From: Clostridia bacterium
GTDB taxonomy: Bacteria > Bacillota > Clostridia > TANB77 > RGIG9151
Length of the DNA stretch: 12,581 nucleotides
Direction: 5' to 3'
Assembly: GCA_016287855.1 (NCBI GenBank)
Contig: JAEEXS010000044.1
Location: 1-12,581 of the forward strand
Positions 1 through 12,581 of this stretch are shown here, in pieces. The translations under genes were made by a program, and so were the position numbers. The notes beneath the pieces were generated by a model. That model made no database searches. It was not told the origin of the DNA and worked only from the letters and a program-made list of their open reading frames with translations. The first letter of the stretch is position 1. Every line of letters begins with the position of its first letter.

Positions 1-138
1 GAATCACGTATCCGTGATGTAGATATGGCAGAAGAGATGGTAAACTATACAAAGAATAGTATATTGAACCAAGCTGCTATGGCTATGTTAGCACAAGCTA
101 ACCAACAACCACAAAACATTTTGTCATTACTTCAATAA
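1..138 (+). CDS. fliC: Flagellin, C-terminal fragment (5' end lies outside the window)
   Basis: Frame 1 reads [45 protein letters not shown], then TAA at 136-138. This is the conserved flagellin C-terminal D0 helix and parallels residues 334-378 of the complete flagellin at 433-1569. It is not in the ORF track because it is truncated. Confidence 0.9.
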
Positions 139-272
139 TAAGGGATAGAGTTACCTTAATAAAAGGTTAAGGACAAAAATCTTTAATGTACATATAAATT
201 TAAGTGTATTCTTAAATTATACGGCGAAAAAATAAAGAAATAGTACAAAAGAGGTTAAGTTAATAATAAGTT

Positions 273-299
273 TAGACGATAATCTAAACAGCCGAATAA
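273..299 (+). promoter_or_regulatory. Candidate sigma-D/sigma-28-type promoter for the second flagellin gene
   Basis: TAGA (273-276), a 15-nt spacer, then CCGAATAA (292-299). This resembles the flagellar sigma consensus TAAA-N15-CCGATAT used by flagellin genes in Firmicutes. The match is imperfect in both elements. Confidence 0.35.
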
Positions 300-323
300 G
301 TCTTTGGTTTCCAAGGACTTTTT
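298..323 (+). terminator. Candidate intrinsic terminator for the upstream flagellin gene
   Basis: GTCTTTGG (300-307) pairs with CCAAGGAC (311-318), with one G-U pair and a 3-nt loop, followed by TTTTT (319-323). Its left arm abuts the candidate sigma-28 -10 element. Transcripts starting at that promoter would therefore lack the full hairpin. Confidence 0.35.
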
Positions 324-391
324 GGCGTTCTGTAAAATATTTATAGAACGCTAGAGGTTTTTTGGAGAGAAAAGTCATATCGGTCTTGGCA

Positions 392-426
392 CAAGGAAGC
401 TGTCAATACAAAGAATTCAAGGAGGA
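392..426 (+). promoter_or_regulatory. Two CsrA-binding-like AAGGA motifs in the flagellin leader, the second overlapping the Shine-Dalgarno sequence
   Basis: CAAGGAA at 392-398 and CAAGGAGGA at 418-426, with the ATG at 433. The GGA-in-A-rich-context pattern and the two-site layout (one on the SD) match the known CsrA/FliW control of flagellin translation in Bacillus. Confidence 0.4.
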
Positions 427-432
427 ATTTAT

Positions 433-1569
433 ATGAGAATCAACACTAATCTAATGGCGCTTAACGCGCAGAACAAATTGCAGGTAAATCAGTCAAACGT
501 GGAGAAATCAATTCAAAAGTTATCTTCTGGATTGAGAATAAACTCGGCTGCCGATGATGCTGCGGGATTAGCGATTAGTGAGAAAATGCGTGCGCAGATC
601 CGAGGTCTGGGACAAGCTCAGGATAATGCGCAAGACGGAATTTCTCTCCTCCAAACCGCAGAAGGCGCATTGCAGCAAACGACCGACATTTTACAAAGAA
701 TGAGGGAGCTTGTAATAAAGGCGCAAAACACAGGTGTATTGACAGACAACGATAGAACATCAATAACAAGTGAGCTTAGTACACTACGAGACGAACTAGA
801 TAGAATAGCGACTTCGACGACCTTTAACTCAAAGAAATTGTTAAATGGAGAACTTGCAGTTCAAAGAGCAGAAGATGGTGGAACTTTTTCTGCTGGGATA
901 GTGGATGTTGTAAATGCAAATGCAGGTACAACGTATACGATTACTGCTCAAGCCGGTCGACGTGCATATATTTCATACGTAGATTCAACTGGTACCACGA
1001 TAAGCTGTGTTTCAGATATTACTATGACTGGAACACTTACTGGAAAAGTAAATTTTTCAGATGCTGGAATCTCAATAAACTTTTGGACTAATAAAATTAA
1101 TCTAAATAGTTTTAATGGCACAACAATAATCACAGCAGATGAGTCGATGGGCAAAAAAGCAGATTTTAAAATCGGAGCTAATACATATACCGAAGATATA
1201 TTAGCAATAGGTATAGGGGATATGTCATCTCGTGGGTTAAATATCAAAGGTGATGGAAACAAATTCTCTATAGATATTTCTACGGCTAAGTCAGCGAATG
1301 ATGTACTAGATGCAGTCGATTTCGCAATAGATGCGGTATCTTCACAAAGAGCTACACTAGGAGCGATACAAAATCGAATGGAATATGCTATTAGCAATTT
1401 GAGTGCAACTAAAGAAAACCTAACAGCAGCAGAGTCACGTATTCGTGATGTGGACATGGCTGATCAGATGGTAAGCTATACAAAAGATAACATACTAACG
1501 CAATCTGCTATGGCGATGCTTGCTCAAGCAAATCAGTTACCTCAACAAATTTTAACTTTATTACAATAA
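433..1569 (+). CDS. fliC: Flagellin (378 aa)
   Basis: N terminus MRINTNLMALNAQNKL...LSSGLRINSAADDAAGLAISEKMRAQIRGL and C terminus LGAIQNRMEYAISNL...[11 protein letters not shown]...LAQANQLPQQILTLLQ are canonical flagellin D0/D1 segments around a variable centre. SD AAGGAGGA sits 6 nt upstream of the ATG. Confidence 0.96.
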   Translation: MRINTNLMALNAQNKLQVNQSNVEKSIQKLSSGLRINSAADDAAGLAISEKMRAQIRGLGQAQDNAQDGISLLQTAEGALQQTTDILQRMRELVIKAQNTGVLTDNDRTSITSELSTLRDELDRIATSTTFNSKKLLNGELAVQRAEDGGTFSAGIVDVVNANAGTTYTITAQAGRRAYISYVDSTGTTISCVSDITMTGTLTGKVNFSDAGISINFWTNKINLNSFNGTTIITADESMGKKADFKIGANTYTEDILAIGIGDMSSRGLNIKGDGNKFSIDISTAKSANDVLDAVDFAIDAVSSQRATLGAIQNRMEYAISNLSATKENLTAAESRIRDVDMADQMVSYTKDNILTQSAMAMLAQANQLPQQILTLLQ

Positions 1570-1576
1570 TAAAGAA

Positions 1577-1605
1577 TCCCGGGTTAAAAACCCGGGAATT
1601 TTTTT
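1577..1605. terminator. Bidirectional intrinsic terminator between convergent fliC and rpoD
   Basis: TCCCGGGTT (1577-1585) pairs with AACCCGGGA (1589-1597) around an AAA loop, followed by a run of 7 T (1599-1605). On the minus strand the same stem is followed by TTCTTTATT. The rpoD stop codon (1604-1606) lies inside the T-tract. Confidence 0.85.
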
Positions 1606-2695
1606 AATCTAAATAATCTTTTAATTTCTTACTTCTGCTAGGATGACGAAGTTTTCTAAGAGCTTTTGCTTCTATTTGACGAATTCTTTCTCTAGTAACA
1701 TTAAATACTTTTCCTACTTCTTCTAGAGTCCTAGCTCTTCCGTCGTCTAATCCAAATCTTAATTTTAATACTTTTTCTTCTCTAGGAGTTAAAGTCCCTA
1801 AAACATCAACAAGTTGCTCTTTTAAGAGAGTAAAAGCAGCAGATTCCGCAGGAGCAGGAGCGTCATCATCAGGGATAAAGTCGCCCAAATGACTATCTTC
1901 TTCTTCACCTATTGGAGTGTCTATTGAGATAGGTTCTTGAGAAATTTTTTCGATTTCTGCAATTCTTTCAACAGGCAAATCTATCTCACGAGAGATTTCT
2001 TCAGGTGTAGCTTCACGACCTAGTTGTTGAAGAAGTTGCCTCTTTACACGAATTAATTTATTAATAGTTTCAACCATATGAACAGGCACACGAATAGTTC
2101 TAGCTTGGTCTGCAATTGCACGGGTAATAGCTTGTCTTATCCACCAAGTAGCATAAGTACTAAACTTATAGCCTTTTGTATAGTCGAATTTTTCAACTGC
2201 TTTAATAAGACCCATATTACCTTCTTGAATTAAATCAAGTAGAAGCATACCACGACCAACATATTTTTTTGCAATACTAACAACAAGACGTAAGTTAGAT
2301 TCAGCTAGTCTCTTTCTAGCATATTCGTCTCCTTTAGCCATTTTTTCAGCAAGTTCTATTTCCTCTTCCATAGAAAGAAGAGGTACTTTACCAATTTCTT
2401 TTAAGTACATTCTAACAGGGTCATCTACACTAGTACCTTCTGGAAGAGTTAAGTCAATTTCTTCATCTGTTAATTCGCCGTCACTAAAATCAACATCGCC
2501 TAAATCATCATCGAAATCGTCTATTACTTCTATTCCATTTGATTCAAGAGTTTCAAATATTTTATCTATTTGCTCTGGGTCAACCATACCATCAAATTCA
2601 GCCATTATTTGGTCATAGGTAAGAGAGCCCTTGCTTTTTCCTAAATCTATTAGTTTTTGAATGCATTCTTTTTTACTAGTTTCTTTTTCTTCCAA
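1604..2695 (-). CDS. rpoD: Primary (housekeeping) RNA polymerase sigma factor, sigma-70/SigA family (363 aa)
   Basis: Region 2 ([32 protein letters not shown]), region 3, and region 4.2 ([30 protein letters not shown]) are present, with an acidic N-terminal region 1. It lies immediately downstream of dnaG, as in the conserved dnaG-rpoD operon. The start codon is TTG, with AGGAGG 8 nt upstream inside the dnaG 3' end. Confidence 0.96.
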
Positions 2696-2697
2696 AA

Positions 2698-4500
2698 TTA
2701 TTTCCTCCTCTCGGCAGAAATAGAATGTAATTTTAAAATTACATCATTCAGCCTTCTTTCCAATTCATTAGCCTTAGGTCCATTTGGATCATCTTTTAAG
2801 CTTTTTAAAATAGCAGATTTTTCTTTTTCTAAATCGAATTTTCGTAGAACATCTACTGCATCTAAAAGTGCTTTTTCATTATTATTCCCTAAATTATCTT
2901 CTTCTTGCATAATTCCGGTAATAACGTTAATATCATTCTCATCAGAGAATAAATCTATAATATTTTGTTGCTTTTCACTCTCAAAGTGCATATATAATTT
3001 TTCGGCTAAATGGCGATATAAATTAACCGTAAAATTATCATAATTCATATATTTTTTTATTGTGTTAAAAATTTTTTTGTCATTTTGACATAGTAAAAAA
3101 ATTAACAATTTCTCAGAGTCATACACATTTTTAGGAATGTCTATGATTTTTGTTGTAGCGGTTTCTAGTGAAGGAATTGGAGAACGTTTAACACTCTTCG
3201 TAGAATTTCCAAATATTTTTTTATTTATTTCAGAATAGATAGATTCTACCCCAACTCCAAGTTCTGCTGCAATTTTATTTATGTAAAAATCTCTTTCAAT
3301 TGAATTATCTAGTTTAGCAAGTATAGTTGCTGCAGAGTTTAAATACGAAATTTTACCGTCAGTAGTAGACATATCTATATTTTTCTTTAAATTAGACAAC
3401 TTAAATTCAACTAGAGTTATTGCATTATCCATCAATTTTTTCATTTTTTCAGGTCCAAATTTATTTACAAATTCATCAGGGTCTTTTGCATCAGATATTT
3501 TTAATACTTTCACGTTACACCCAAGAGATGTAAGTATATCTAGCCCACGCATTATTGCATTTTGACCAGCACCATCTGCATCGTAGCCAAGTATTATTTC
3601 AGGAGCATATTTTCTCATAAGCCGACCTTGAGTTTCGGTAAGAGCAGTACCTAAAGAGGCAATTGCATTAGGGATTCCTGCTTTATGCATAGATATTACA
3701 TCCATATAACCTTCTACCATAAGTAGTTTATTTACTTTTGCGCGCCGAGCAAAATTTAGGGCATATATATTTTTTCCTTTGTTGTATATAGGAGTTTCGG
3801 GAGAATTCATATATTTAGGTAAGGAATCATCTAAAACACGCCCACCAAAAGCAATTACTCTATCTTTTATATCAAAGATAGGGAACATAAGCCTATTTTT
3901 AAATCTATCGACAAAAGAGTTATTATTTCGAATTATTAACCCAGAATCAACCATTTCGTCAGGTGTAAAACCAAGTGAACTTAAATGATTAAAAAGATCA
4001 TTCTTAACTCCAAAAGAAAAACCAAGTCCAAATTTATTTACGGTTTCATTATCTAGATGACGTTTATTTATATACTCTTGTGCAGATTTGGCGGCAGGGG
4101 AGTATAAATTGTTCCTAAAATATTTTGCAGCTTCTAAGTTTACTTGAAATAATCGTTCTTTATGCTTTATATTAGCAAAATTTACATTCGTATTATCTTC
4201 AGGTAGAGTTATTTTGGCTCTTTCGGCAAGTTGCTCAACTGCTTCGTAAAAATCTATATTTTCTGTTTGCATTAAAAACTTTATTACATCTCCTCCAACA
4301 CCACATCCAAAACAATGAAAAATTTGCTTATCTGGAGATACGGAGAAAGATGGAGTTTTTTCTTTATGAAATGGACAAAGCCCTTTATATGAAGGACCTG
4401 CACGTTTTAGAGTAACATATTCTCCTATTATATCTACAATGTCATTTGCGGCTTTTATTTCATCTATTAAAGCCTCATCTAAGAATGCCAAAAACTTCAC
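2698..4500 (-). CDS. dnaG: DNA primase DnaG (about 597-600 aa)
   Basis: CHC2 zinc finger ([30 protein letters not shown]), RNA polymerase core, and TOPRIM motifs ([15 protein letters not shown]). The ORF-track start at 4500 is GTG and forms part of a GAGGTGA SD-like string. The TTG at 4491 has proper 5-nt spacing and may be the true start. Confidence 0.95.
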
Positions 4501-4592
4501 CTCACTTGTACCAAAAATATCCCTAGTTACATTATTATTCTACATAATGCAATAAAATCCTTTTACGTAAACATAAATATTTATTAGGCACC

Positions 4593-4621
4593 TTGAAGAA
4601 TAAGAACACATGTGATATAAT
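4593..4621 (+). promoter_or_regulatory. Sigma-A-type promoter with extended -10, driving the small ORF at 4678
   Basis: TTGAAG (4593-4598), a 17-nt spacer, and TATAAT (4616-4621) preceded by TG at 4613-4614 (TGATATAAT). This is close to the consensus vegetative promoter. Confidence 0.6.
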
Positions 4622-4677
4622 ATACAAGTAAAATTATTATGTATATTCAAATGCTATATTTATGCTGGAGGAAGAAG

Positions 4678-4911
4678 ATGGATACTGTAATGAGTGTCGA
4701 AAAGAAAGAGAAGCAGGTCAAAGTTACGGGCTACAAGTATTGGTTGCAGCAACAGTGCTGGAAGGCCGGTGGCCACACCTATACGATGCGTTCTCACTGG
4801 GGAATTATCTGGACCGAATGTATTTGCTGTGGCGCAAGAATAGTGGATGGAAGAAAAATGGAAGAATTTGAAGATGAGTATGAGGACGAGGAAATCGAAG
4901 AAACTGAATAA
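4678..4911 (+). CDS. Hypothetical small protein, 77 aa, Cys/Trp-rich core with an acidic tail
   Basis: GGAGG (4667-4671) lies 6 nt before the ATG at 4678, which is in frame with the 4639 ORF. Product: MDTVMSVEKKEKQVKVTGYKYWLQQQCWKAGGHTYTMRSHWGIIWTECICCGARIVDGRKMEEFEDEYEDEEIEETE. It is flanked by a strong promoter and a strong terminator. I recognise no family. Confidence 0.5.
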   Translation: MDTVMSVEKKEKQVKVTGYKYWLQQQCWKAGGHTYTMRSHWGIIWTECICCGARIVDGRKMEEFEDEYEDEEIEETE

Positions 4912-4926
4912 GTAATATAACAATGC

Positions 4927-4958
4927 AAGCGTACCCTAAATGTAGGGTACGCTTTTTT
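4927..4958. terminator. Bidirectional intrinsic terminator between the small ORF (+) and spoVAE (-)
   Basis: AAGCGTACCCT (4927-4937) pairs perfectly with AGGGTACGCTT (4944-4954) around a 6-nt loop. The T-run spans 4953-4958. The spoVAE stop codon (4957-4959) overlaps the T-tract. Confidence 0.85.
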
Positions 4959-5313
4959 ATGCTTTTGCATGGGCTCTAAAAATTAGACCAACAATTAAGC
5001 TAAAAAATATAGCAGCGCCAACACCTGCAGCAGTAGCCTTTATTCCACCAGTGAATATACCCAAGAATCCATAATTGTTTATTTCTTTGATTACTCCATT
5101 TACGAGGGCATATCCAAACCCTGTAAGCGGTACAGTAGCGCCCGCACCGCCGAACTTAACTATTGGCTCATATAATCCAATAGCAGTTAAGATTACTCCA
5201 GAAACTATAAATAAAACTAATATTCTAGCAGGAGTTAGTTTTGTTTTGTCTATTAAAATTTGCCCGATTGAGCATATTATACCACCAGTTATAAAAGCAG
5301 TAAGATATGACAT
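4957..5313 (-). CDS. spoVAE: Stage V sporulation protein AE (SpoVAEb-type membrane protein, 118 aa)
   Basis: Small polytopic membrane protein with the motif GGAGATVPLTGFG, paralogous to the SpoVAC motif. It is the last gene after spoVAC-spoVAD, the typical clostridial tricistronic order. Confidence 0.88.
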   Translation of the reverse strand: MSYLTAFITGGIICSIGQILIDKTKLTPARILVLFIVSGVILTAIGLYEPIVKFGGAGATVPLTGFGYALVNGVIKEINNYGFLGIFTGGIKATAAGVGAAIFFSLIVGLIFRAHAKA

Positions 5314-5329
5314 ATTTAATCAATCCTTT

Positions 5330-6334
5330 CTAGTTTTCTATTGCAATAGCATGAGCAATACCTTCTATTGCTTCTCCTTGCTGGATAGCAGTAGGACTCA
5401 TAAGAGCTCCTGTTGCAACTAAAAGTATTTTATTTAATTCTTTTTGTTGTAATTTATTATATAAATAACCAGCAAAAACACTTCCACAACAACCACAACC
5501 ACTACCACCTGCGTGTGTATCTTGTGCTTTACTATCAAACATTAAAATTCCGCAATCATTATATCTACCTTTTATATTAATATCATTTTTAAGTAGAATA
5601 TCTTTTAATATTTCTCCGCCAATTATTCCTAAATCTCCGGTTACAATTAAGTCATAGTAGCTTGGATCACGACCTGTTTCATTAAAATGAGAATAGATTG
5701 TATCGGCTGCCGCTGGTGCCATTGCTGCGCCCATATTATTTGCATCTTTTATGCCCATATCTACAACTTGACCAATTGTTACATGAGTTATTTTAGGACC
5801 TTTTTGCTCAGTAGAAACAATAGCAGCACCAGATCCGGTAACAGTCCATTGGGCTGTTGGTGTACGTTGAGTCCCTTGTTCAAGAGGGAATCTAAATTGT
5901 CGTTCGGCAGAACAGAAGTGGCTTGAAGTCATTGCAATTATATTGTCTGCGAATCCGCCGTCAACTAACATAGAGCCTATTGCTAAAGACTCTACCATAG
6001 TTGAACAAGCACCATATAGTCCTATAAAAGGTATCTCACTTTCACGAACGGCATAAGAGGAAGAGATACATTGGTTTAGCAGATCCCCAGCTAATATATA
6101 GTTTATATCCTCTGGAGTTTTTTTGGCTTTTTGTAGAACTTTATTTAAATTTTCTTTTAAAATTTTTATTTCTGTTTTCTCGAAGCTCTTTTCTCCCCAG
6201 TATTCGTCTTCCAAAATAAAGTCAAAATATTTAGCAAGAGGTCCTTCACCTTCTTTTTTACCCACAATTGAAGAAGTTTCAATTATATGTGGCTCTGAAG
6301 TTAGAGCTACTGTCTTTTTTCCAAGTCTTTTCAT
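5330..6334 (-). CDS. spoVAD: Stage V sporulation protein AD (thiolase-fold, DPA-binding, 334 aa)
   Basis: Close colinear resemblance to Bacillus SpoVAD: AGDLLNQ, GLYGACST..ESLAIGS, TSSHFCSAERQFRFP, GSGAAIVS, MGAAMAPAAADTI, GDLG, GGSGCGC, VATGALMSPT. Confidence 0.93.
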   Translation of the reverse strand: MKRLGKKTVALTSEPHIIETSSIVGKKEGEGPLAKYFDFILEDEYWGEKSFEKTEIKILKENLNKVLQKAKKTPEDINYILAGDLLNQCISSSYAVRESEIPFIGLYGACSTMVESLAIGSMLVDGGFADNIIAMTSSHFCSAERQFRFPLEQGTQRTPTAQWTVTGSGAAIVSTEQKGPKITHVTIGQVVDMGIKDANNMGAAMAPAAADTIYSHFNETGRDPSYYDLIVTGDLGIIGGEILKDILLKNDINIKGRYNDCGILMFDSKAQDTHAGGSGCGCCGSVFAGYLYNKLQQKELNKILLVATGALMSPTAIQQGEAIEGIAHAIAIEN

Positions 6335-6345
6335 ATATAGTCTCC

Positions 6346-6792
6346 TTATAAATTAAATATAAAGTATAAAAAACCAACAATTATTGATGAGGATATGCCG
6401 TAAACAAGTACGGGCCCCGCTATAATAAACATTTTGGCTCCTAGTCCCATAACTAAGCCTTCAGTTTTAAACTCAATTGCAGGAGATGCAATAGAATTCG
6501 CAAAGCCAGTAATAGGGACAACAGTACCTGCTCCTGCACGTTTGCCTATATTATCATACCAACCGAGTGCCGTTAAAATTATTGCACCTAGAATAAGTAA
6601 TATAGAAGTTATTGAGGAAACAGTGTCGCGGGGTAAGCCTCTTGCAGTGAAGAAATTTGTTATAAATTGGCCTATTATACATATTAGACCACCGATTAAA
6701 AAAGCCCAAGCTATATCCTTAAATAATGGACTATTAGGTGACTTTTTCTCAACATACTTTGAATATTCTGGTTTTGTATACGGTTGTTTCAT
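6346..6792 (-). CDS. spoVAC: Stage V sporulation protein AC (148 aa)
   Basis: Membrane protein with an N-terminal KSP...F...F..GG.IC..GQ pattern and GAGTVVPITGFANSIASPA, characteristic of SpoVAC. It is the first gene of the spoVAC-AD-AE set. Confidence 0.92.
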   Translation of the reverse strand: MKQPYTKPEYSKYVEKKSPNSPLFKDIAWAFLIGGLICIIGQFITNFFTARGLPRDTVSSITSILLILGAIILTALGWYDNIGKRAGAGTVVPITGFANSIASPAIEFKTEGLVMGLGAKMFIIAGPVLVYGISSSIIVGFLYFIFNL

Positions 6793-6814
6793 AAAAACTC
6801 TCCTTTATAGTAGA

Positions 6815-8200
6815 TTAGATGGTTAATACCCCATTTGGTGTATTAATAATTATTAAAATATCTTCCTCTTTTCCAGTATCTGCATTTATATAAACAATAA
6901 AATCCCTATTATCTACTTCCCCTTTAAATTCATGTACCAATACCTCTTCCTTTGTTTCTGTAGGGATAATTGCAAGACCGGTATATTCTGGGTTTAAATC
7001 TTTATTTATATGCTCTAAAGCCACTTCTTTAGAGATTTTGAGCTCAGAAATATTTCTATCTACGTGAGAAAACAGGTATCCAGCGGCCTCAAAACCAGTT
7101 ATATCGCCGTTATCCATTGCAACAGAAACCTTTATTAAATCAGGGTAAATAGTTATAGACTTATCGGTATATGCAAAGTTTAAAGTGGCTATATTATTCT
7201 CATCTATATAATAAGTAGGGACCATCTTTGTAAAACCCTTTGAATTTAAAAAATCTAAGCCCCGAGATTTTGCATCATCTATTGTTAAAACCTTATTTTC
7301 TACATCTTTGTTGTATAAAAACCATATAACATGGCCTCCTTTTTTAGAGATATCTACATTTGCAGTTTCACCACTTTTTAATTTTATAGAAAGGCTAAAA
7401 CAAGGGATTTTTGAATTAAAAGATTCGACGATATTTTCTATTTCTTGTATTTTATCTTGCCCAATGAAATCAGTTGCTATTTTTTTAGCTTTTTCCTGGT
7501 CTATATCATTACCAGTTATACCTTTTGGCTCTAAGTCGACTATGTGGTCAGAAAAAGGCCCATCATATATTAAACCAGGATAATCTTGAAAGTTATCTGA
7601 CATATCTTGAAAAACACTTTTTTCATCAGAAGTTTTTTCGAGATTGGCAAAAGTTTTTGAACCTTTTTTAGTAAGCTCATTCCAAGATAGTCTTCCTTCA
7701 GCAAGTTGAGCAGATAGGTCAAAAATACTGTTTTGAAGTTTGGTTGCATAATCAGATAAAGACTTTATTTGGATTAGTTGATCAGTTGTTATAGGATTTT
7801 GATCTATTGTTTGTAGAGTTAAAGAATGAGAGAAATCACTAGTTTGAGAAAGGAACTTTGAAGTTTGAGCAATTAAATTTTGTTCAATAGGTAAATCGGA
7901 AAGGTTAGCCTTTGCAAGATTCGCTTGACGCCATATTTCACTCATTGTTTTAGCCCCATGAGTTGGGTCTTTACTAATTAAAGATTTAGCAAGCAAAGTA
8001 TCAATATTTTCAACATAGGAAGCCATCTCAAAAAAGGCTTGATTGTATCTATTTTCTAAAGCTTGTTTGTTATCATTACGTATTTTAAAAATATAGCCAA
8101 GAAGAGCTAAAATTACTAGTAAAGAAGTTATTACAATAGTAAACATATGTCTATCTCTTAAACGTTCCCTAAAATCTTTAAGTTTATCTACAAAATTCAT
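6815..8200 (-). CDS. ypeB: Spore germination protein YpeB (N-terminal anchor plus PepSY-type repeats, 461 aa)
   Basis: Colinear with Bacillus YpeB: ENRYNQAFFEMASYVENID, IWRQANLAKANLSDLP, SKFLSQTSDFS, DISKKGGHVIWFLYN. There is a single N-terminal TM segment. SD AAAGGAGG precedes the ATG. Confidence 0.88.
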   Translation of the reverse strand: MNFVDKLKDFRERLRDRHMFTIVITSLLVILALLGYIFKIRNDNKQALENRYNQAFFEMASYVENIDTLLAKSLISKDPTHGAKTMSEIWRQANLAKANLSDLPIEQNLIAQTSKFLSQTSDFSHSLTLQTIDQNPITTDQLIQIKSLSDYATKLQNSIFDLSAQLAEGRLSWNELTKKGSKTFANLEKTSDEKSVFQDMSDNFQDYPGLIYDGPFSDHIVDLEPKGITGNDIDQEKAKKIATDFIGQDKIQEIENIVESFNSKIPCFSLSIKLKSGETANVDISKKGGHVIWFLYNKDVENKVLTIDDAKSRGLDFLNSKGFTKMVPTYYIDENNIATLNFAYTDKSITIYPDLIKVSVAMDNGDITGFEAAGYLFSHVDRNISELKISKEVALEHINKDLNPEYTGLAIIPTETKEEVLVHEFKGEVDNRDFIVYINADTGKEEDILIIINTPNGVLTI

Positions 8201-8230
8201 TAGTAATTAGCCTCCTTTGTGTAATGTTAC

Positions 8231-8259
8231 TATTTTTAACAAAAACTTATAAAATATAC
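8231..8259 (-). promoter_or_regulatory. Candidate forespore (sigma-F/sigma-G-type) promoter upstream of ypeB
   Basis: The minus strand reads GTATA (8259-8255), a 17-nt spacer, then AAAAATA (8237-8231). Compare sigma-G-type GHATR-N17/18-CAHWHTA: the -35 matches and the -10 matches 6 of 7. It lies about 30 nt upstream of the ypeB ATG. This is a pattern match only. Confidence 0.3.
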
Positions 8260-8372
8260 ACTTTTTATATTGTGCTTTACTATACTTTTGTGATAGTATT
8301 CAAAGGATGGGACAAAGTAAGTAGTGATTTAAATTTTTTGTACCAAATTTATCATTAAAAGGAGAGGATTAG

Positions 8373-8999
8373 ATGGAACCAATTGTATTAACACATCCAT
8401 TGGTTAAACACAAACTTGCAATTTTAAGAGACAAGAATTCAGGAACAAAAGAATTTAGAGAAATCGCTGCAGAGCTTGCAACAATGCTTTGCTATGAAGC
8501 TACGAAAGACGCACCGTTATATGATACGGAAATAGAAACACCTATTGCCAAAATGAAAGCTCAAAAATTAGATGAAGATAATTATGCATTTTTACCAATC
8601 CTAAGAGCTGGAATGAGCATGGTTGAAGGAATACTAAATATTATACCTAACGCAAAGGTAGGGCATATCGGGTTATTTAGAAATGAGGAAACGTTAGAGC
8701 CAACTCAATATTATTTTAAGGTGCCCCACGGGATAGAAAATAGAACGGTAATCATATTAGATCCAATGATTGCAACTGGCGGAAGTGCTTGCGATGCAAT
8801 CCAGAGCTTAAAGAATATTGGAGTTAAAAAGATTAAATTTTTAGCACTTATTGCAGTCCCAGAAGGGCTAGAAAGAATACAAAAAGAACATCCGGACGTT
8901 CAAATTTATTGTACAAGTATAGATAGTCACTTAAATGAAAAAGGATATATTGTTCCTGGCTTAGGAGATGCTGGGGATAGAATATATGGAACAAAATAA
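8373..8999 (+). CDS. upp: Uracil phosphoribosyltransferase (208 aa)
   Basis: HPLVKHKL..LRDK, ILRAG, the PRPP-binding loop ILDPMIATGGS, and C-terminal YIVPGLGDAGDR are all canonical Upp motifs. SD AAGGAGAGGA lies upstream. Confidence 0.95.
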   Translation: MEPIVLTHPLVKHKLAILRDKNSGTKEFREIAAELATMLCYEATKDAPLYDTEIETPIAKMKAQKLDEDNYAFLPILRAGMSMVEGILNIIPNAKVGHIGLFRNEETLEPTQYYFKVPHGIENRTVIILDPMIATGGSACDAIQSLKNIGVKKIKFLALIAVPEGLERIQKEHPDVQIYCTSIDSHLNEKGYIVPGLGDAGDRIYGTK

Positions 9000-9022
9000 A
9001 TTTTTAGAGAGGAGTTTTTAGT

Positions 9023-9757
9023 ATGAAGTATAAAAGAGTTTTGCTTAAATTAAGTGGAGGAGCTTTATCTAAAGACGAAAGGCATGGCTATACAAAAGAA
9101 GCCTTAGACCATATTACTAACGAAATTATTACCGCTGCAAATGCTGGAGTTGAAGTAGCTATTGTAACAGGCGGTGGAAATATATTCAGAGGAAGAGTTG
9201 CAGATGATTGGAACTTTGAAAGAGCAGAAGCAGATAATATTGGAATGCTTGCAACAATAATGAATAGCTTGATGTTAAGAGGGGCATTAACTGCTAAAGG
9301 TGTAGAAAACGTAAGAGTTATGACTGCTATCCCTATGAATACAGTAGCAGAACCATATATAAGACTTAAAGCATTAAAGTATCTAGATAGAGGAAGAATA
9401 GTTATTTTTGGTGGTGGTACAGGTAACCCATTTGTTACAACAGACTATACTTCTATCCAAAAAGCGCTAGAAATTAGAGCTGACGTAGTACTTATGGCTA
9501 AACAAGGAGTTAATGGAATATATACGGCTAATCCAAAAGACGACCCTAATGCAAAAAGATATAAATCTGCTACATATGAAGAAGTTATTGCAAAAAAACT
9601 TCAAGTTGCAGACCAGTCAGCGTTTATTTTAGCTAGTGAATACAAAATGCCAATGTACGTATTTGATTTTGATGAAAAGAATTCCATAATGAGACTTTGC
9701 GAAGGTGAAAATATTGGTACATATGTTGGAGAAGATTGCCAAACAGAGATGTATTAA
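9023..9757 (+). CDS. pyrH: UMP kinase family protein (PyrH-like, divergent; 244 aa)
   Basis: Amino-acid-kinase fold motifs: YKRVLLKLSGGAL, VAIVTGGGNIFRG, ADNIGMLATIMN, GGGTGNPFVTTD, NGIYTANPKDDPNAKRY. It departs from the usual KLSGEAL and MDRATADYMGML signatures. The symbol is tentative. Confidence 0.8.
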   Translation: MKYKRVLLKLSGGALSKDERHGYTKEALDHITNEIITAANAGVEVAIVTGGGNIFRGRVADDWNFERAEADNIGMLATIMNSLMLRGALTAKGVENVRVMTAIPMNTVAEPYIRLKALKYLDRGRIVIFGGGTGNPFVTTDYTSIQKALEIRADVVLMAKQGVNGIYTANPKDDPNAKRYKSATYEEVIAKKLQVADQSAFILASEYKMPMYVFDFDEKNSIMRLCEGENIGTYVGEDCQTEMY

Positions 9758-9769
9758 GGAGGTTGAAAA

Positions 9770-10255
9770 ATGGTTAAAAAAAGAGAAAATTATTTAACAT
9801 GGGATAACTATTTTATGGCTATAGCAAAATTATCTGCTATGCGTAGTAAAGACCCTTCTACTCAAGTTGGTGCTTGCATAGTAAGCCCAGATAATAGGAT
9901 TTTATCTATGGGATATAACGGAGCCCCAAATGGTCTTAATGATGATGATTTCCCTTGGGCAAGAGAAGGCGCCCCCCTTGATACTAAGTACCTTTATGTT
10001 TGCCATGGAGAAATGAATGCAGTTATGAATTATAGAGGAAACAAAAGAGATTTAGAAGGTGCAAAAATATATGTTGATTTATTCCCTTGTAATGAGTGTG
10101 CAAAGATAATTATTCAAGCAGGAATAAAAGAAGTTATATACCTTAGTGATAAATATGCAGACAAAGATATTTTTATCGCATCCAAGAGACTTTTTGATGC
10201 TTGCGGTGTTAAGTATAGGCATTTAGAAGGCTTTGAAGAGATAAATATTAAGTAA
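9770..10255 (+). CDS. comEB: Deoxycytidylate (dCMP) deaminase, ComEB type (161 aa)
   Basis: Zinc-dependent cytidine/deoxycytidylate deaminase motifs HGEMNAV and PCNECAKII, with an N-terminal [19 protein letters not shown] typical of dCMP deaminases. Confidence 0.9.
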
Positions 10256-10261
10256 AGATAT

Positions 10262-10303
10262 TCCTCAATCATTAAAAAAAATGATGATTGAGGATATTTT
10301 TTT
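10262..10303 (+). terminator. Intrinsic terminator ending the upp-pyrH-comEB operon
   Basis: TCCTCAATCAT (10262-10272) pairs perfectly with ATGATTGAGGA (10284-10294), followed by TATTTTTTT (10295-10303). Confidence 0.85.
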
Positions 10304-10408
10304 ATTAAAATATGCAAAAACACTAAACAAAAAAGAGTATTGTGCCGATACACTGAAAGTATAAGGAGTTTAGTATAAAAATACTAAAAATTAAAGGAGG
10401 AAATTTTT

Positions 10409-10618
10409 ATGAAGAAAAACATGTTAAAAAAAGGCGGAGTAGCTGATATCGTTACTCTTATAATTATCGTAGGATTAGTTGTAGCGTTAATCATTGCAGT
10501 AGTTCTTCCTATGGTAACTAGCGTTAGAGAAAGAGAAGATACAACAGATGAAAACCTTGGAAAAGTAGATAATTATATTAGTGGCATGGCAGGCACAGAC
10601 TATTCATATTCACATTAG
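10409..10618 (+). CDS. Small pilin-like protein 1 (69 aa), K-G-G leader plus one hydrophobic helix
   Basis: MKKNMLKKGGVADIVTLIIIVGLVVALIIAVVLPM..., with SD AAAGGAGG 8 nt upstream. It has a short basic leader ending in GG, then a roughly 22-residue hydrophobic helix and a polar tail. This is the size and architecture of Flp-type or archaeal class-III-signal pilins. Confidence 0.6.
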   Translation: MKKNMLKKGGVADIVTLIIIVGLVVALIIAVVLPMVTSVREREDTTDENLGKVDNYISGMAGTDYSYSH

Positions 10619-10656
10619 TCTTTAGTGTGATTTAATTCGTATTGAGGGTGAATGAT

Positions 10657-10830
10657 ATGAAAAAATTAAAAGGTGGAATAGAGAGTATAGTTGCTGTTGT
10701 TATTTTAGTAGGCATAGTTGTTGCTCTGATTATAGCCGTAATTTTGCCTATGACTAGCAAAACACGGGAGATGGCTGATGGAGGAACAGAGAGAATGTCT
10801 GAATTAACAAAAGAGATGAAAGGCGAGTAA
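10657..10830 (+). CDS. Small pilin-like protein 2 (57 aa)
   Basis: MKKLKGGIESIVAVVILVGIVVALIIAVILPMTSKTREMADGGTERMSELTKEMKGE. I prefer the ATG at 10657 (SD GAGGGTG 6 nt upstream) to the TTG at 10642 in the track. It shares the invariant G-x-VVAL-x-IAV-xx-PM core with proteins 1 and 3. Confidence 0.62.
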   Translation: MKKLKGGIESIVAVVILVGIVVALIIAVILPMTSKTREMADGGTERMSELTKEMKGE

Positions 10831-10840
10831 GGGTGATTAT

Positions 10841-11017
10841 ATGCTAAATAAATTAAAAGGTGGCTTAGAAACCGTAATAGCCATAGTTATAGTTGCTGGT
10901 TTAGTAGTTGCACTTCTTATAGCCGTGGTTATTCCTATGTCTCAACAAGGAGATGAACTTATTGGGGCAACTACAGACAGTTTAACTCAGCAACAAACAA
11001 CTATAGGGCCACAATAA
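10841..11017 (+). CDS. Small pilin-like protein 3 (58 aa), not present in the supplied ORF track
   Basis: Hand translation: MLNKLKGGLETVIAIVIVAGLVVALLIAVVIPMSQQGDELIGATTDSLTQQQTTIGPQ, with TAA at 11015-11017. SD AAGGGTGA overlaps the stop of gene 2. A 14-nt stretch, AAATTAAAAGGTGG (10850-10863), is identical to 10663-10676 in gene 2 and encodes KLKGG. Confidence 0.6.
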   Translation: MLNKLKGGLETVIAIVIVAGLVVALLIAVVIPMSQQGDELIGATTDSLTQQQTTIGPQ

Positions 11018-11033
11018 TTAAGAAGTTGATTAG

Positions 11034-11084
11034 GTTTGAAGAATAATTGGGTATATAGCTCAATTATTTTTCAAACTGTTTTGC
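11034..11084 (+). terminator. Long hairpin (terminator or attenuator) between the small pilin genes and the larger downstream genes
   Basis: GTTTGAAGAATAATTG (11034-11049) pairs along all 16 positions (one G-U) with CAATTATTTTTCAAAC (11061-11076). It is followed by TGTTTTGCGTATTT, a T-rich but interrupted tract. Confidence 0.55.
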
Positions 11085-11110
11085 GTATTTAAGGAAGGAA
11101 TGTGATTAAA

Positions 11111-11626
11111 ATGAAGAAAGAGGCATCATTAAAGCTAAAAAAGGGCGGACTTGATACTATAGTTGCGTATATAGTTGTAATGTTACCTCTTTTTTATGTG
11201 CTTGTATATATGATTGCAACTATATATCATTTTTCTGTACAACAATATATGAATCAGGTAGTAAAAGAAGCTTGTGTCATGGCGAGTACATACGGTGCAA
11301 TAACTGAAGGACATGAAAATTATATTTATTCTAAATTAGCAAAAGCGCTAGATGATGATAAAGATGGTAAGGCAGATGTTACTATAACTTATTATAGGCG
11401 ACCATTTGATGAGTCAACGGGTGTAGTAGGAAATATTAGTGATGGAAGTTCAGCAAGACCCGGTGTAAATAAAGGCGATATAATAGGAATATATGTACAA
11501 TCGAAAAAACCGTCATTACTAGGTACAGTGGGGAATTTTAATGTTTTTATGTTTGGACGAGGAAATGATAACTTGTTAAAATATACTGCTTATAGAGAGG
11601 AGATTATTCGAAATGAACATCCATAA
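11111..11626 (+). CDS. TadE-like / minor-pilin-like protein carrying the same K-G-G leader (172 aa from the ATG at 11111)
   Basis: MKKEASLKLKKGGLDTIVAYIVVMLPLFYVLVYMIATIYHF..., followed by a soluble domain of about 120 aa. SD AAGGAAGGA (11091-11099) is better spaced for the ATG at 11111 than for the GTG at 11102 in the track. The architecture (leader, TM helix, small globular domain) resembles TadE-family pseudopilins. Confidence 0.5.
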   Translation: MKKEASLKLKKGGLDTIVAYIVVMLPLFYVLVYMIATIYHFSVQQYMNQVVKEACVMASTYGAITEGHENYIYSKLAKALDDDKDGKADVTITYYRRPFDESTGVVGNISDGSSARPGVNKGDIIGIYVQSKKPSLLGTVGNFNVFMFGRGNDNLLKYTAYREEIIRNEHP

Positions 11627-12581
11627 TAATCTCGGTAAGCATATTTCTAATAATAGTGGTAGTGGGATAGGTGTAATCTTATATGGTATGACGTTATTAC
11701 TCATACTTATTTTTACTGCTGTAAATATTGTAAATTCTAAAACAATTGAAAGTGGGTATAATTCTTTAAGAGATGCAGTCTATTCTGCTTCGACTGGTTC
11801 AGTTATCCACTTACTTACATCAAATCGTAGCACTACTAGTGCTCAAAATAGCATAATAAGTAATGCAAATTATGATGTATATCTGCAACTTGCTTTAGGG
11901 TATTTGATAAACAGAAATCCTACATCCTCAAGTAGTGATAGATATGTGCAAAATGGTGAATTAAATAATTTTATAAAATTAGATCACCAAAAAGTAGTAA
12001 ATTCTACAATGGCATTATTTGCTGATGCTGTTTTTAGAAATCGTGGTGGCAATCACTATGAAACAATAAGTGATACTAATAAATATAAAATATTGATGTT
12101 TTTTATAGAACCTTATGCTGATGCAGGTAATCAAAAATATTTTGATATAATTTGTTATAGCAATAATGGTTGGAATGGCAATGTTACTGCAGAATATGCG
12201 CGAAGTGCAGTTAAACTTGACGCTGGAAATATGAGATCTGTTTATAATGGTGTACAGGGGCAGATTAATAGTATCGTTAATGGCTTTTGCGATGATGGAA
12301 GAAGTTATAATATAAATATAAATGCGAATGGAAGCGACTTGGCAGGGAAAGTAAGAGAAATGGAAACGTATCCACATTATCTTATAGTAGTAAAAGATTT
12401 TGCCTTGCCTACGATTTTTGATGGAGTAGATACTAACGATAGAGAAAGAGCTGGAATAAGAAGTATCTTTACCTCTCTTTCAGGAGATGGAAAGCTTCAT
12501 ACACCTATGTGTGCGTTAAATACAGGTAAAGTTCAACGTCAAACAGAAGATAAAGGGTGGAAGCAAGAGAGATGGTATACT
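11613..12581 (+). CDS. TadG-like / Flp-pilus-assembly-like protein, 3' end outside the window (323 codons seen); not in the ORF track
   Basis: Open frame from the ATG at 11613 (SD AGAGAGGAG upstream) to the window end, overlapping the previous gene by 14 nt. The N terminus is MNIHNNLGKHISNNSGSGIGVILYGMTLLLILIFTAVNIVNSKTIESGYNSLRDAVYSAS. A Gly-rich stretch, a hydrophobic helix, then L..A..sA about 15 residues later echo the TadE/G-like N-terminal domain. Confidence 0.45.
   Translation, partial: MNIHNNLGKHISNNSGSGIGVILYGMTLLLILIFTAVNIVNSKTIESGYNSLRDAVYSASTGSVIHLLTSNRSTTSAQNSIISNANYDVYLQLALGYLINRNPTSSSSDRYVQNGELNNFIKLDHQKVVNSTMALFADAVFRNRGGNHYETISDTNKYKILMFFIEPYADAGNQKYFDIICYSNNGWNGNVTAEYARSAVKLDAGNMRSVYNGVQGQINSIVNGFCDDGRSYNININANGSDLAGKVREMETYPHYLIVVKDFALPTIFDGVDTNDRERAGIRSIFTSLSGDGKLHTPMCALNTGKVQRQTEDKGWKQERWYT

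Follow-up and report, generated by a model that had tools for sequence, protein, structure and literature searches.

Organization of the locus

This report concerns a row of small genes near the end of a 12,581-nucleotide (nt) stretch of DNA, hereafter "the window" (positions 1 to 12,581 of the forward strand of contig JAEEXS010000044.1, assembly GCA_016287855.1, Clostridia bacterium), which is a low-GC chromosome segment of the Clostridia type. An original prediction, made from the letters alone, had recognized here a tandem array of three genes for tiny pilin-like proteins, each preceded by its own Shine-Dalgarno (SD) site and each encoding a leader that ends in Lys-Gly-Gly (KGG). Three genes of 69, 57 and 58 amino acids (aa) are indeed present, with the SD sites aggagg, gagggtg and agggtg, respectively; the unit to which they belong, however, does not end with the third of them at position 11017 but continues to a total of six genes, the fifth of which is interrupted by the end of the window. 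The features of this unit that lie within the window are the following.

10262..10294, + strand: terminator-like hairpin, a 13-pair stem followed by a T-run, 3′ of the upstream dCMP-deaminase gene
10409..10618, + strand: gene 1, putative type A prepilin of 69 aa; leader MKKNMLKKGG, then VADIVTLIIIVGLVVALIIAVVLPM, then a variable polar tail
10657..10830, + strand: gene 2, putative type B prepilin of 57 aa; leader MKKLKGG, then IESIVAVVILVGIVVALIIAVILPM and a tail
10841..11017, + strand: gene 3, putative type C prepilin of 58 aa; leader MLNKLKGG, then LETVIAIVIVAGLVVALLIAVVIPM and the conserved tail GDxLIxATTDSLTxQQxTIGPQ
11033..11087, + strand: hairpin and U-run between gene 3 and gene 4 (20 bp, −23.9 kcal/mol, z −5.8)
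11111..11626, + strand: gene 4, pilin-like protein of 171 aa; leader MKKEASLKLKKGG, then LDTIVAYIVVMLPLFYVL and a globular part
11613..12581, + strand: gene 5, truncated here (328 aa when read to its end on the full contig); N-terminus ..NSGSG/IGVILYGMTLLLILIF, then an alpha/beta domain

By the hairpin at 10262-10294 the pilin transcription unit is delimited on its 5′ side; in the region 10200-11700 two terminator-like sites were observed against 0.4 expected from shuffled sequences. In the mechanical list of open reading frames (ORFs) gene 2 starts at a TTG codon (10642), but since all homologs begin with MKKLKGG the real start is the ATG at 10657, a choice that is also supported by the SD site of the gene. 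The hairpin at 11033-11087 is found also in the closest relative (contig L005, z −4.7; contigs and loci are here indicated by L numbers) and is absent from those other lineages in which genes 3 and 4 are separated by 13–35 nt. It is probably a partial terminator, and possibly an attenuator, which would keep the expression of genes 4–6 below that of the pilins.

A family of small proteins with a Lys-Gly-Gly leader

The products of genes 1–3 are built on a common plan consisting of a short basic leader ending in K-G-G, a hydrophobic helix and a polar tail. The leader follows the pattern M-(K/x)-K-x-L-K-G-G and is succeeded by a hydrophobic residue and by an acidic one at +2 or +3, the residues after GG being V-A-D-I-V-T, I-E-S-I-V-A or L-E-T-V-I-A, with no Tyr among them. 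In the three-way alignment the invariant positions (gene 1 numbering) are K8, G9, G10, G22, VVAL 24–27, IAV 29–31 and P34-M35, the glycine of the helix and the P-M pair corresponding to G12 and P24-M25 in the numbering of the mature helix. A profile of the three proteins retrieved 137 clusters at E≤0.01 among 5.8 billion proteins (best 1e-26), and when 1.84 billion cluster representatives were searched exhaustively with HMMER, using a profile of 32 sequences, 104 were retrieved at E≤1e-3. The plan recognized in the original prediction has stood up, and its sharing by the three putative pilins is far beyond chance. The GG pair occurs in 120 of the 120 listed pilin members and is preceded by K in 114 and by R in three; the leader measures 6–11 residues (medians 8–11), and the median mature lengths of types A, B and C would be 63, 50 and 50 residues. 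All 137 clusters come from metagenomes or metagenome-assembled genomes (MAGs), of gut or rumen origin, and none carries an informative name; the only Pfam domain among them is a single precomputed match to PF10717 (ODV-E18), on cluster P0078.

The homologs fall into three types that keep the same order in every relative's locus. Type A (KKGG/VADIVTLM...) has 63 homologs, with 91% identity in the 26-residue core and 25% in the tail; type B (KGG/(I/V)E(S/G)II...) has 31 homologs with a tail identity of 37%; type C (KGG/LE(T/G)(V/I)IA...) has 26 homologs whose tail GDxLIxATTDSLTxQQxTIGPQ is 65% identical and is therefore constrained, unlike that of type A, which is the only hypervariable one. By sequence and gene order the three small genes are distinct orthologous types, presumably of subunits, and not variants of one another. 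Thus, of the proposal that the divergent tails represent variants, the part that stands is the hypervariability of the type A tail, whereas the three genes are fixed types and not antigenic variants of each other. In the core codons of close lineages synonymous changes outnumber or match amino-acid changes, as in the comparison of gene 1 with its L007 counterpart, where the helix core has nine synonymous and three amino-acid-changing codons.

Scans of all five window proteins against Pfam and NCBIfam gave nothing significant. The Flp profile (PF04964) has no match at E≤1 for genes 1–3 and none at E≤10 among 32 family members, Flp1_like (PF16982) has none in the Pfam scans of the same proteins, and the Class_IIIsignal, Pilin_N and N_methyl profiles gave no reportable Pfam or NCBIfam match with them. 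This absence of matches to the Flp/Fap, Flp1-like and class III families, together with the acid at +2/+3, bears out the earlier view that the processing motif fits neither Flp nor ComG. Below threshold there are recurrent matches to archaeal pilin N-terminal families, namely DUF7288 in 7 of the 32 members (E 0.016–0.6), DUF7289 (E 0.17), UpsC and, in a distant relative, Pilin_N (E 0.42); these are compatible with the proposed Epd-like ancestry of Tad systems (PMC6668835) and are no evidence of membership. DUF6724 is matched over the helix region in 21 of the 32 members, again below threshold (best E 0.003, cut-off 27 bits), and may stand beside the present family as a sister group of small pilin-like proteins; no paper mentioning DUF6724 was found in the literature.

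A prepilin peptidase ends a six-gene cassette

On the full contig (L001, 22.8 kb, found via gene 1) the next gene after gene 5, beginning past a spacer of 11 nt, encodes a 178-aa protein that scores 31.9 bits with the Pfam Peptidase_A24 model (PF01478) and so exceeds the gathering score of 26.5; the values for three orthologs range from 31.9 to 35.5 bits. Its aspartate motifs are ...SIEDW... and ...GGGD...; SI(E/I/R)D(W/Y) and GGGD are kept in nine orthologs of 170–188 aa, and both Asp residues are kept (GDW, GGGD) in the 151-aa ortholog of L027. The protein is short like TadV and CpaA, has no methyltransferase domain and has no match among NCBIfam models or PDB sequences. By family and motifs, gene 6 is predicted to be a TadV-like A24 aspartyl prepilin peptidase, and the peptidase that was expected in the company of pilin genes is found as the last gene of the operon both on the full contig and in every relative. 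Directly after it in L001 (12826-13092, ~245 nt past the window end) lies a gene for the bacterial large signal recognition particle (SRP) RNA (Rfam RF01854, 151 bits), which is followed by HDOD/HD, dnaX, ybaB and recR.

The order of the cassette, i.e., pilins A, B and C, a protein of ~170 aa, one of ~320–370 aa and an A24 peptidase of 170–188 aa, recurs in at least four unrelated neighbourhoods.

Neighbourhood 1, upp/dCMP-deaminase...SRP RNA/HDOD/dnaX: L001, L005, L021
Neighbourhood 2, pyruvate-ferredoxin oxidoreductase...YfhO/rplM: L007, L009, L011, L012, L016, L019
Neighbourhood 3, the same region as neighbourhood 2 but with YfhO upstream: L015
Neighbourhood 4, SLT...HDOD: L013, L014

The other genes of the window encode flagellin, SigA, DnaG, SpoVAC/AD/AEB, YpeB, Upp, a protein with an amino-acid-kinase fold and dCMP deaminase. 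A link of the cassette with sporulation through the neighbouring spoVA and ypeB genes was considered and rejected, since the neighbours of the cassette in other lineages are unrelated to these. Between dnaG and spoVAE the window also carries, at 4678-4911 on the + strand, a short ORF, conserved and rich in Cys, that has an acidic tail and no Pfam match; it is 77 aa long as called in L001 and 84 aa long in L005.

In some relatives the cassette adjoins genes of the membrane glycosyltransferase type: YfhO (GT-C) lies directly downstream of the peptidase in L007 (12739-15294) and directly upstream of the pilins in L015 (6303-8786), and a gene resembling Wzy_C/O-antigen ligase lies between gene 5 and the peptidase in L025 (9319-10584). 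These neighbours suggest that the pilin tails, which are rich in Ser/Thr, are glycosylated; no gene of this type adjoins the cassette in the locus of the window itself. The region 175-8929 of L013 contains a canonical type IVa-like pilin of 403 aa (MKNKGFTLVELV...), ~9 kb upstream of the cassette, followed by a 2450-aa SLH-anchored repeat protein.

The two larger pilin-like proteins

Gene 4 begins with MKKEASLKLKKGG, which is followed by LDTIVAYIVV..., so that the LKKGG/LDTIV stretch is the same leader as that of the small pilins. Among its 11 orthologs the invariant positions include L9, G12, G13, D15, AYIVV and P26; it has no Pfam or NCBIfam match and is duplicated in L025. The protein is a candidate for a minor pilin, its size and position being similar to those of TadE/TadF.

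The N-terminus of gene 5 is characterized by an invariant G16-x-G18 followed by (I/L/M)(G/A)(V/I) and a hydrophobic helix, with many invariant core residues; the G-x-G is conserved but the basic residue before it is not. Its homologs form 78 clusters, all in this clade, and the gene was found in 7 of 185,579 genomes (one per GTDB species), the seven species being MAGs of uncultured Clostridia, Eubacteriales or unclassified bacteria; the sources, where they are named, are the human (Hadza) gut, the water-deer rectum and the goat rumen. A Pfam scan of 33 homologs gave scattered chance matches and no Tad/TadG domain, and the AlphaFold2 (AF2) model is of low confidence (predicted local distance difference test score, pLDDT, 56); the Foldseek matches of this model were class I chains of the major histocompatibility complex with a template modelling (TM) score of about 0.13 and were dismissed as meaningless. 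In the goat-rumen lineage the ortholog (L027:15727-17730) is twice as long, with 667 aa, and has surface repeats of the Flg_new type (Listeria-Bacteroides repeat), which are consistent with an adhesin role. Gene 5 is a candidate for a large minor pilin or tip subunit.

Linkage to Tad-type machinery in relatives

A distant pilin match (P0252) leads to L025, a 21.5-kb contig whose cassette is homologous gene by gene to that of the window: the pilins are 46, 44 and 40% identical to genes 1, 2 and 3, the two gene 4 paralogs 37 and 43%, gene 5 34% and the peptidase 48%. Directly upstream of this cassette are five machine genes.

L025, RcpC/CpaB-like protein: E 3e-4, below the Pfam threshold
L025, AAA_31 MinD/TadZ-like ATPase: above threshold
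L025, T2SSE ATPase of 493 aa: best NCBIfam match the TadA family (1.8e-26)
L025, two polytopic membrane proteins: one with a faint T2SSF match (E 0.0048), the other with none

The closest solved structure to the T2SSE ATPase is Caulobacter CpaF (2.7e-23), followed by archaeal GspE-like, VirB11, FlaI and GspE, and the two platform-like proteins are weakly related to each other by hhalign (P 8e-4, probability 25%). The ATPase belongs to a family of 28 clusters at 74–81% identity, generic CpaF proteins being at most 42% identical; one member, labelled by NCBI "Flp pilus assembly complex ATPase component TadA", is on the 118-kb scaffold L027, on which a CpaB-like protein, a TadZ-like protein, the ATPase, two membrane proteins, five mini-pilins with GG, gene 4, gene 5 and the A24 peptidase are contiguous. 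In the goat-rumen MAG this locus is broken at the pilin genes, L023 and L028 being its two halves. Another family member (P0306) leads to three loci (L031–L033) having all five machine genes, 35–80% identical to those of L025/L027; the two polytopic proteins follow the ATPase in L031, dnaE and uvrA come directly after the machine genes, and no ORF for a GG pilin is found in 21.5 kb. Upstream of the CpaB-like gene in L031 there are two unannotated membrane proteins (108 and 278 aa), and a few kb from the machinery locus (L031:1-4253) there are a coupling protein of a type IV secretion system (TraG/VirD4-type, 620 aa) and an SMC_N/AAA protein.

Three arrangements are therefore found in the clade: the complete locus, the cassette of pilins and peptidase alone, and the machinery alone. 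Loci with machinery and without pilins are the expected complement of a cassette without ATPase, and the simplest reading of the two incomplete arrangements is that they are halves of a single system, present together in the same genomes. The genes gcpE and coaD flank the tad locus upstream in L031 and downstream in L027, which hints at a rearrangement that split the system.

On this evidence we consider it probable that genes 1–3 are the pilin genes of a Tad-like pilus (type IVc, related to the archaeal Epd system) placed at the front of a six-gene module; the earlier suggestion of mini-pilins of Flp/Tad or archaeal type is supported by the A24 peptidase and by the linkage to Tad machinery in relatives. 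Of the ATPase and putative platform genes that were looked for along with them, those of L025 and L027 are contiguous with the cassette, whereas in the lineage of the window none lies within 10 kb of it.

Several points weigh against the assignment to a Tad-like pilus. In the four neighbourhoods listed above no gene for a T2SSE ATPase or a T2SSF platform protein lies within 10 kb of the cassette; the coexistence of the cassette and of a machinery-only locus in one genome is presumed, as is the motor of this genome; the CpaB-like assignment is below threshold, and neither platform-like protein has a match by sequence search in the PDB. To these must be added that the KGG pilins have neither Glu5 nor Tyr6 nor a match to the Flp, Flp1_like or class-III-signal profiles, and that the cleavage preferred below is a predicted one, to which an archaeal-style site between the glycines (K-G/G) is the alternative.

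The same lack of an ATPase next to the cassette, in at least four contexts of the window's lineage group, combined with the fact that a motor in the same genome is only deduced, would also agree with a module whose five proteins are processed by the A24 peptidase and remain membrane-anchored or at the cell surface without polymerizing in this lineage, the motor having been lost or never linked; archaeal proteins with class III signals that are not pilus subunits offer an analogy. This we regard as unlikely, however, for all six genes are strongly conserved across many lineages, relatives hold the cassette inside a full tad-like locus and machinery-only loci exist in the clade, the 28 clusters of the ATPase family (74–81%) are more than the two lineages with complete loci would suggest, and proteins consisting of a 50-residue helix have little obvious use except as polymer subunits.

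It is quite improbable that the cassette feeds another type IV machine, such as the PilB/PilC motor of Clostridial type IVa systems, instead of a Tad-type motor. The canonical N-methyl-type pilin (403 aa) found ~9 kb upstream of the cassette in L013 speaks in its favour, as does the finding that peptidases and pilins can be shared between systems (PMC6668835), but machinery of the CpaF/TadZ type is the only one to which this pilin family is seen to be physically linked, the cassette has its own short peptidase and the pilins lack the G/FTLxE signal.

The GG pair in front of the mature part, together with sub-threshold Pfam matches to a YxzE-like bacteriocin (3 of 32 members) and to Hol_Tox (2 of 32), could also recall bacteriocin-like peptides with a double-glycine leader, or else unrelated small membrane proteins whose likeness to pilins is a by-product of a transmembrane helix. 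Such an explanation has very little to recommend it: the leaders are only 6–11 residues long, the same leader is found on a 171-aa protein, the linkage with an A24 peptidase is obligatory and relatives show linkage with Tad machinery. Neither an ABC exporter with a C39 peptidase nor an immunity gene occurs in any of more than 12 loci, which is in keeping with the original prediction.

Predicted structure of the pilins and probable site of cleavage

The AF2 model of gene 1, obtained from a 32-sequence alignment, consists of one continuous helix spanning residues 11–62 (mean pLDDT 80, core >90), which begins at the residue directly after GG; no PDB match was found for it by Foldseek. Cleavage of the leader would most likely occur after the invariant Gly-Gly, and cleavage after the second Gly is favoured because GG is invariant in all the pilins and in gene 4, because gene 5 keeps G-x-G-(hydrophobic) and not the basic residue and because leaderless relatives start at that position. 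The latter are proteins of 120–170 aa that begin with M-E-K-I-I-A-V-V right after the GG position and have their own SD site. One of them (L024:21-539) has a strong SD and is followed by ORFs (664-1092 and 1107-1313) with N-terminal hydrophobic helices; a system of this type may need no prepilin peptidase.

The archaeal-style alternative would find a basis in the K-G dipeptide present in 114 of 120 members, which corresponds to the archaeal-type pattern with K/R at −2 and G/A at −1. Under either site the acid is at +2 to +4 and never at +5, and Tyr6 is missing. A cut in front of GG, by which the acid would return to +5, was considered and rejected, since it fits gene 1 only and puts a Lys at −1.

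Comparison with known systems

Glu5 is conserved in bacterial type IV pili (T4P) and Tyr6 in all Tad pilins, which are domain-less proteins of 40–60 residues (PMC10710030). With the Tad/Flp systems (Caulobacter CpaA-F/PilA, Aggregatibacter Flp1-TadV) the present one shares a mature pilin of 50–63 residues that is predicted to consist of one helix and to lack a globular domain, a short A24 peptidase devoid of a methyltransferase domain, larger pilin-like proteins carrying the pilin leader, as do TadE/TadF, and, in the relatives, a CpaB-like protein, a TadZ-like protein, a CpaF-type ATPase and two platform-like membrane proteins. It differs in the signal, which is K-G-G followed by a hydrophobic residue and Glu/Asp and not G/XXXXEY, in the very short leader (6–11 residues), in the three fixed pilin paralog types, in the separation of the pilin and peptidase module from the motor genes in this lineage and in the invariance of G12 and P24, the Caulobacter Tad pilin having no residue that resembles Pro22 (PMC10710030). 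The pilins fail the tests that define the Flp family, though they are physically linked to Tad-type machinery in relatives.

Gram-positive Flp-like pilins fit the pattern [GAS]-x4-[DE], and some tad loci are without a recognisable pilin, the pilins perhaps lying apart from the biosynthetic genes (Imam et al. 2011, PMC3244431). With these Flp-like and "no-Flp" systems the KGG pilins have in common the Clostridia hosts, the small size and the lack of Tyr6, but their acid is 1–2 residues past +1, and it can be inferred that a PilFind-type rule of the form [GAS]-x4-[DE] would miss them.

Tad systems are thought to derive from an Epd-like system (PMC6668835), and with the archaeal Epd/class III pilins the KGG family shares the short length, a basic residue and a Gly just before the hydrophobic helix and the dispensability of Glu5. 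Here, on the other hand, the organism is a bacterium, FlaI and archaeal GspE-like proteins are more distant from the ATPase than bacterial CpaF is, the basic residue would be at −3 if cleavage follows GG and the profile matches are not significant.

The likeness to type IVa/Com pilins extends to the class III-type plan, with basic leader, Gly at −1 and hydrophobic helix, and to the helix-perturbing Gly12/Pro24, which recall their Gly14/Pro22; Phe1, Glu5, the globular domain and the methyltransferase domain of the peptidase are lacking here, and in the profile scans there is no N_methyl match (PF07963/TIGR02532), no G/F-T-L-x-E and, for ComGE, only E 0.98. Double-glycine bacteriocins differ in having a GG leader of 15–30 residues, as against the median of 8–11 found here.

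A model for the assembly of the filament

In the Tad-like pilus that we propose, the five proteins would be inserted in the membrane through their N-terminal hydrophobic helix, the short basic leader remaining in the cytoplasm, and the cassette's own peptidase would remove the leader of 6–13 residues, most likely after Gly-Gly, leaving mature N-termini that consist of a hydrophobic residue followed by Glu/Asp at +2/+3. No N-methylation would be expected, because the peptidase has no methyltransferase domain. The mature helices would then be extracted and polymerized by the CpaF/TadA-type ATPase, the TadB/TadC-like platform and the TadZ-like and CpaB-like proteins, whose genes would occupy a different chromosomal locus in this lineage. 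Type A, with its core identity of 91% and tail identity of 25%, would be the exposed major subunit with the variable tail turned outward, while types B and C and the products of genes 4 and 5 would be low-abundance priming or tip subunits, gene 5 being a likely adhesin.

A more far-reaching proposal, which can be put forward tentatively and which we consider somewhat less likely than its negation, is that the KGG pilins constitute an undescribed branch: substrates of a Tad machine in which Glu2/Asp3 has taken the place of Glu5 (and Tyr6), Gly12/Pro24 have been re-acquired and the pilins and their own peptidase form a self-contained module, separable from the motor loci and perhaps interchangeable among them.

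Significance

Tad pili mediate adhesion and colonization and are widespread in gut Clostridia, and their subunits are often unidentified. The locus described here adds a pilin family, unannotated in that neither Pfam nor NCBIfam has a model for it, together with its dedicated peptidase. The biological reach of the finding is limited, since the family does not extend beyond a narrow group of uncultured Clostridia from gut and rumen (7 of 185,579 species representatives), and what is added is a variant of a known machine and no new principle. The family nevertheless breaks the Glu5/Tyr6 rule (PMC10710030), and motif-based pilin finders would miss its members. Furthermore, a type IV filament system can, within one clade, have its substrate module and its motor module at separate loci, a circumstance that matters for the automated detection of these systems.

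Should the KGG pilins prove to be an undescribed branch, neither the G-x4-[DE] pilin rule nor the explanation of the register based on Glu5 would be general, and the missing subunits of the "pilin-less" tad loci of Clostridia would be explained.

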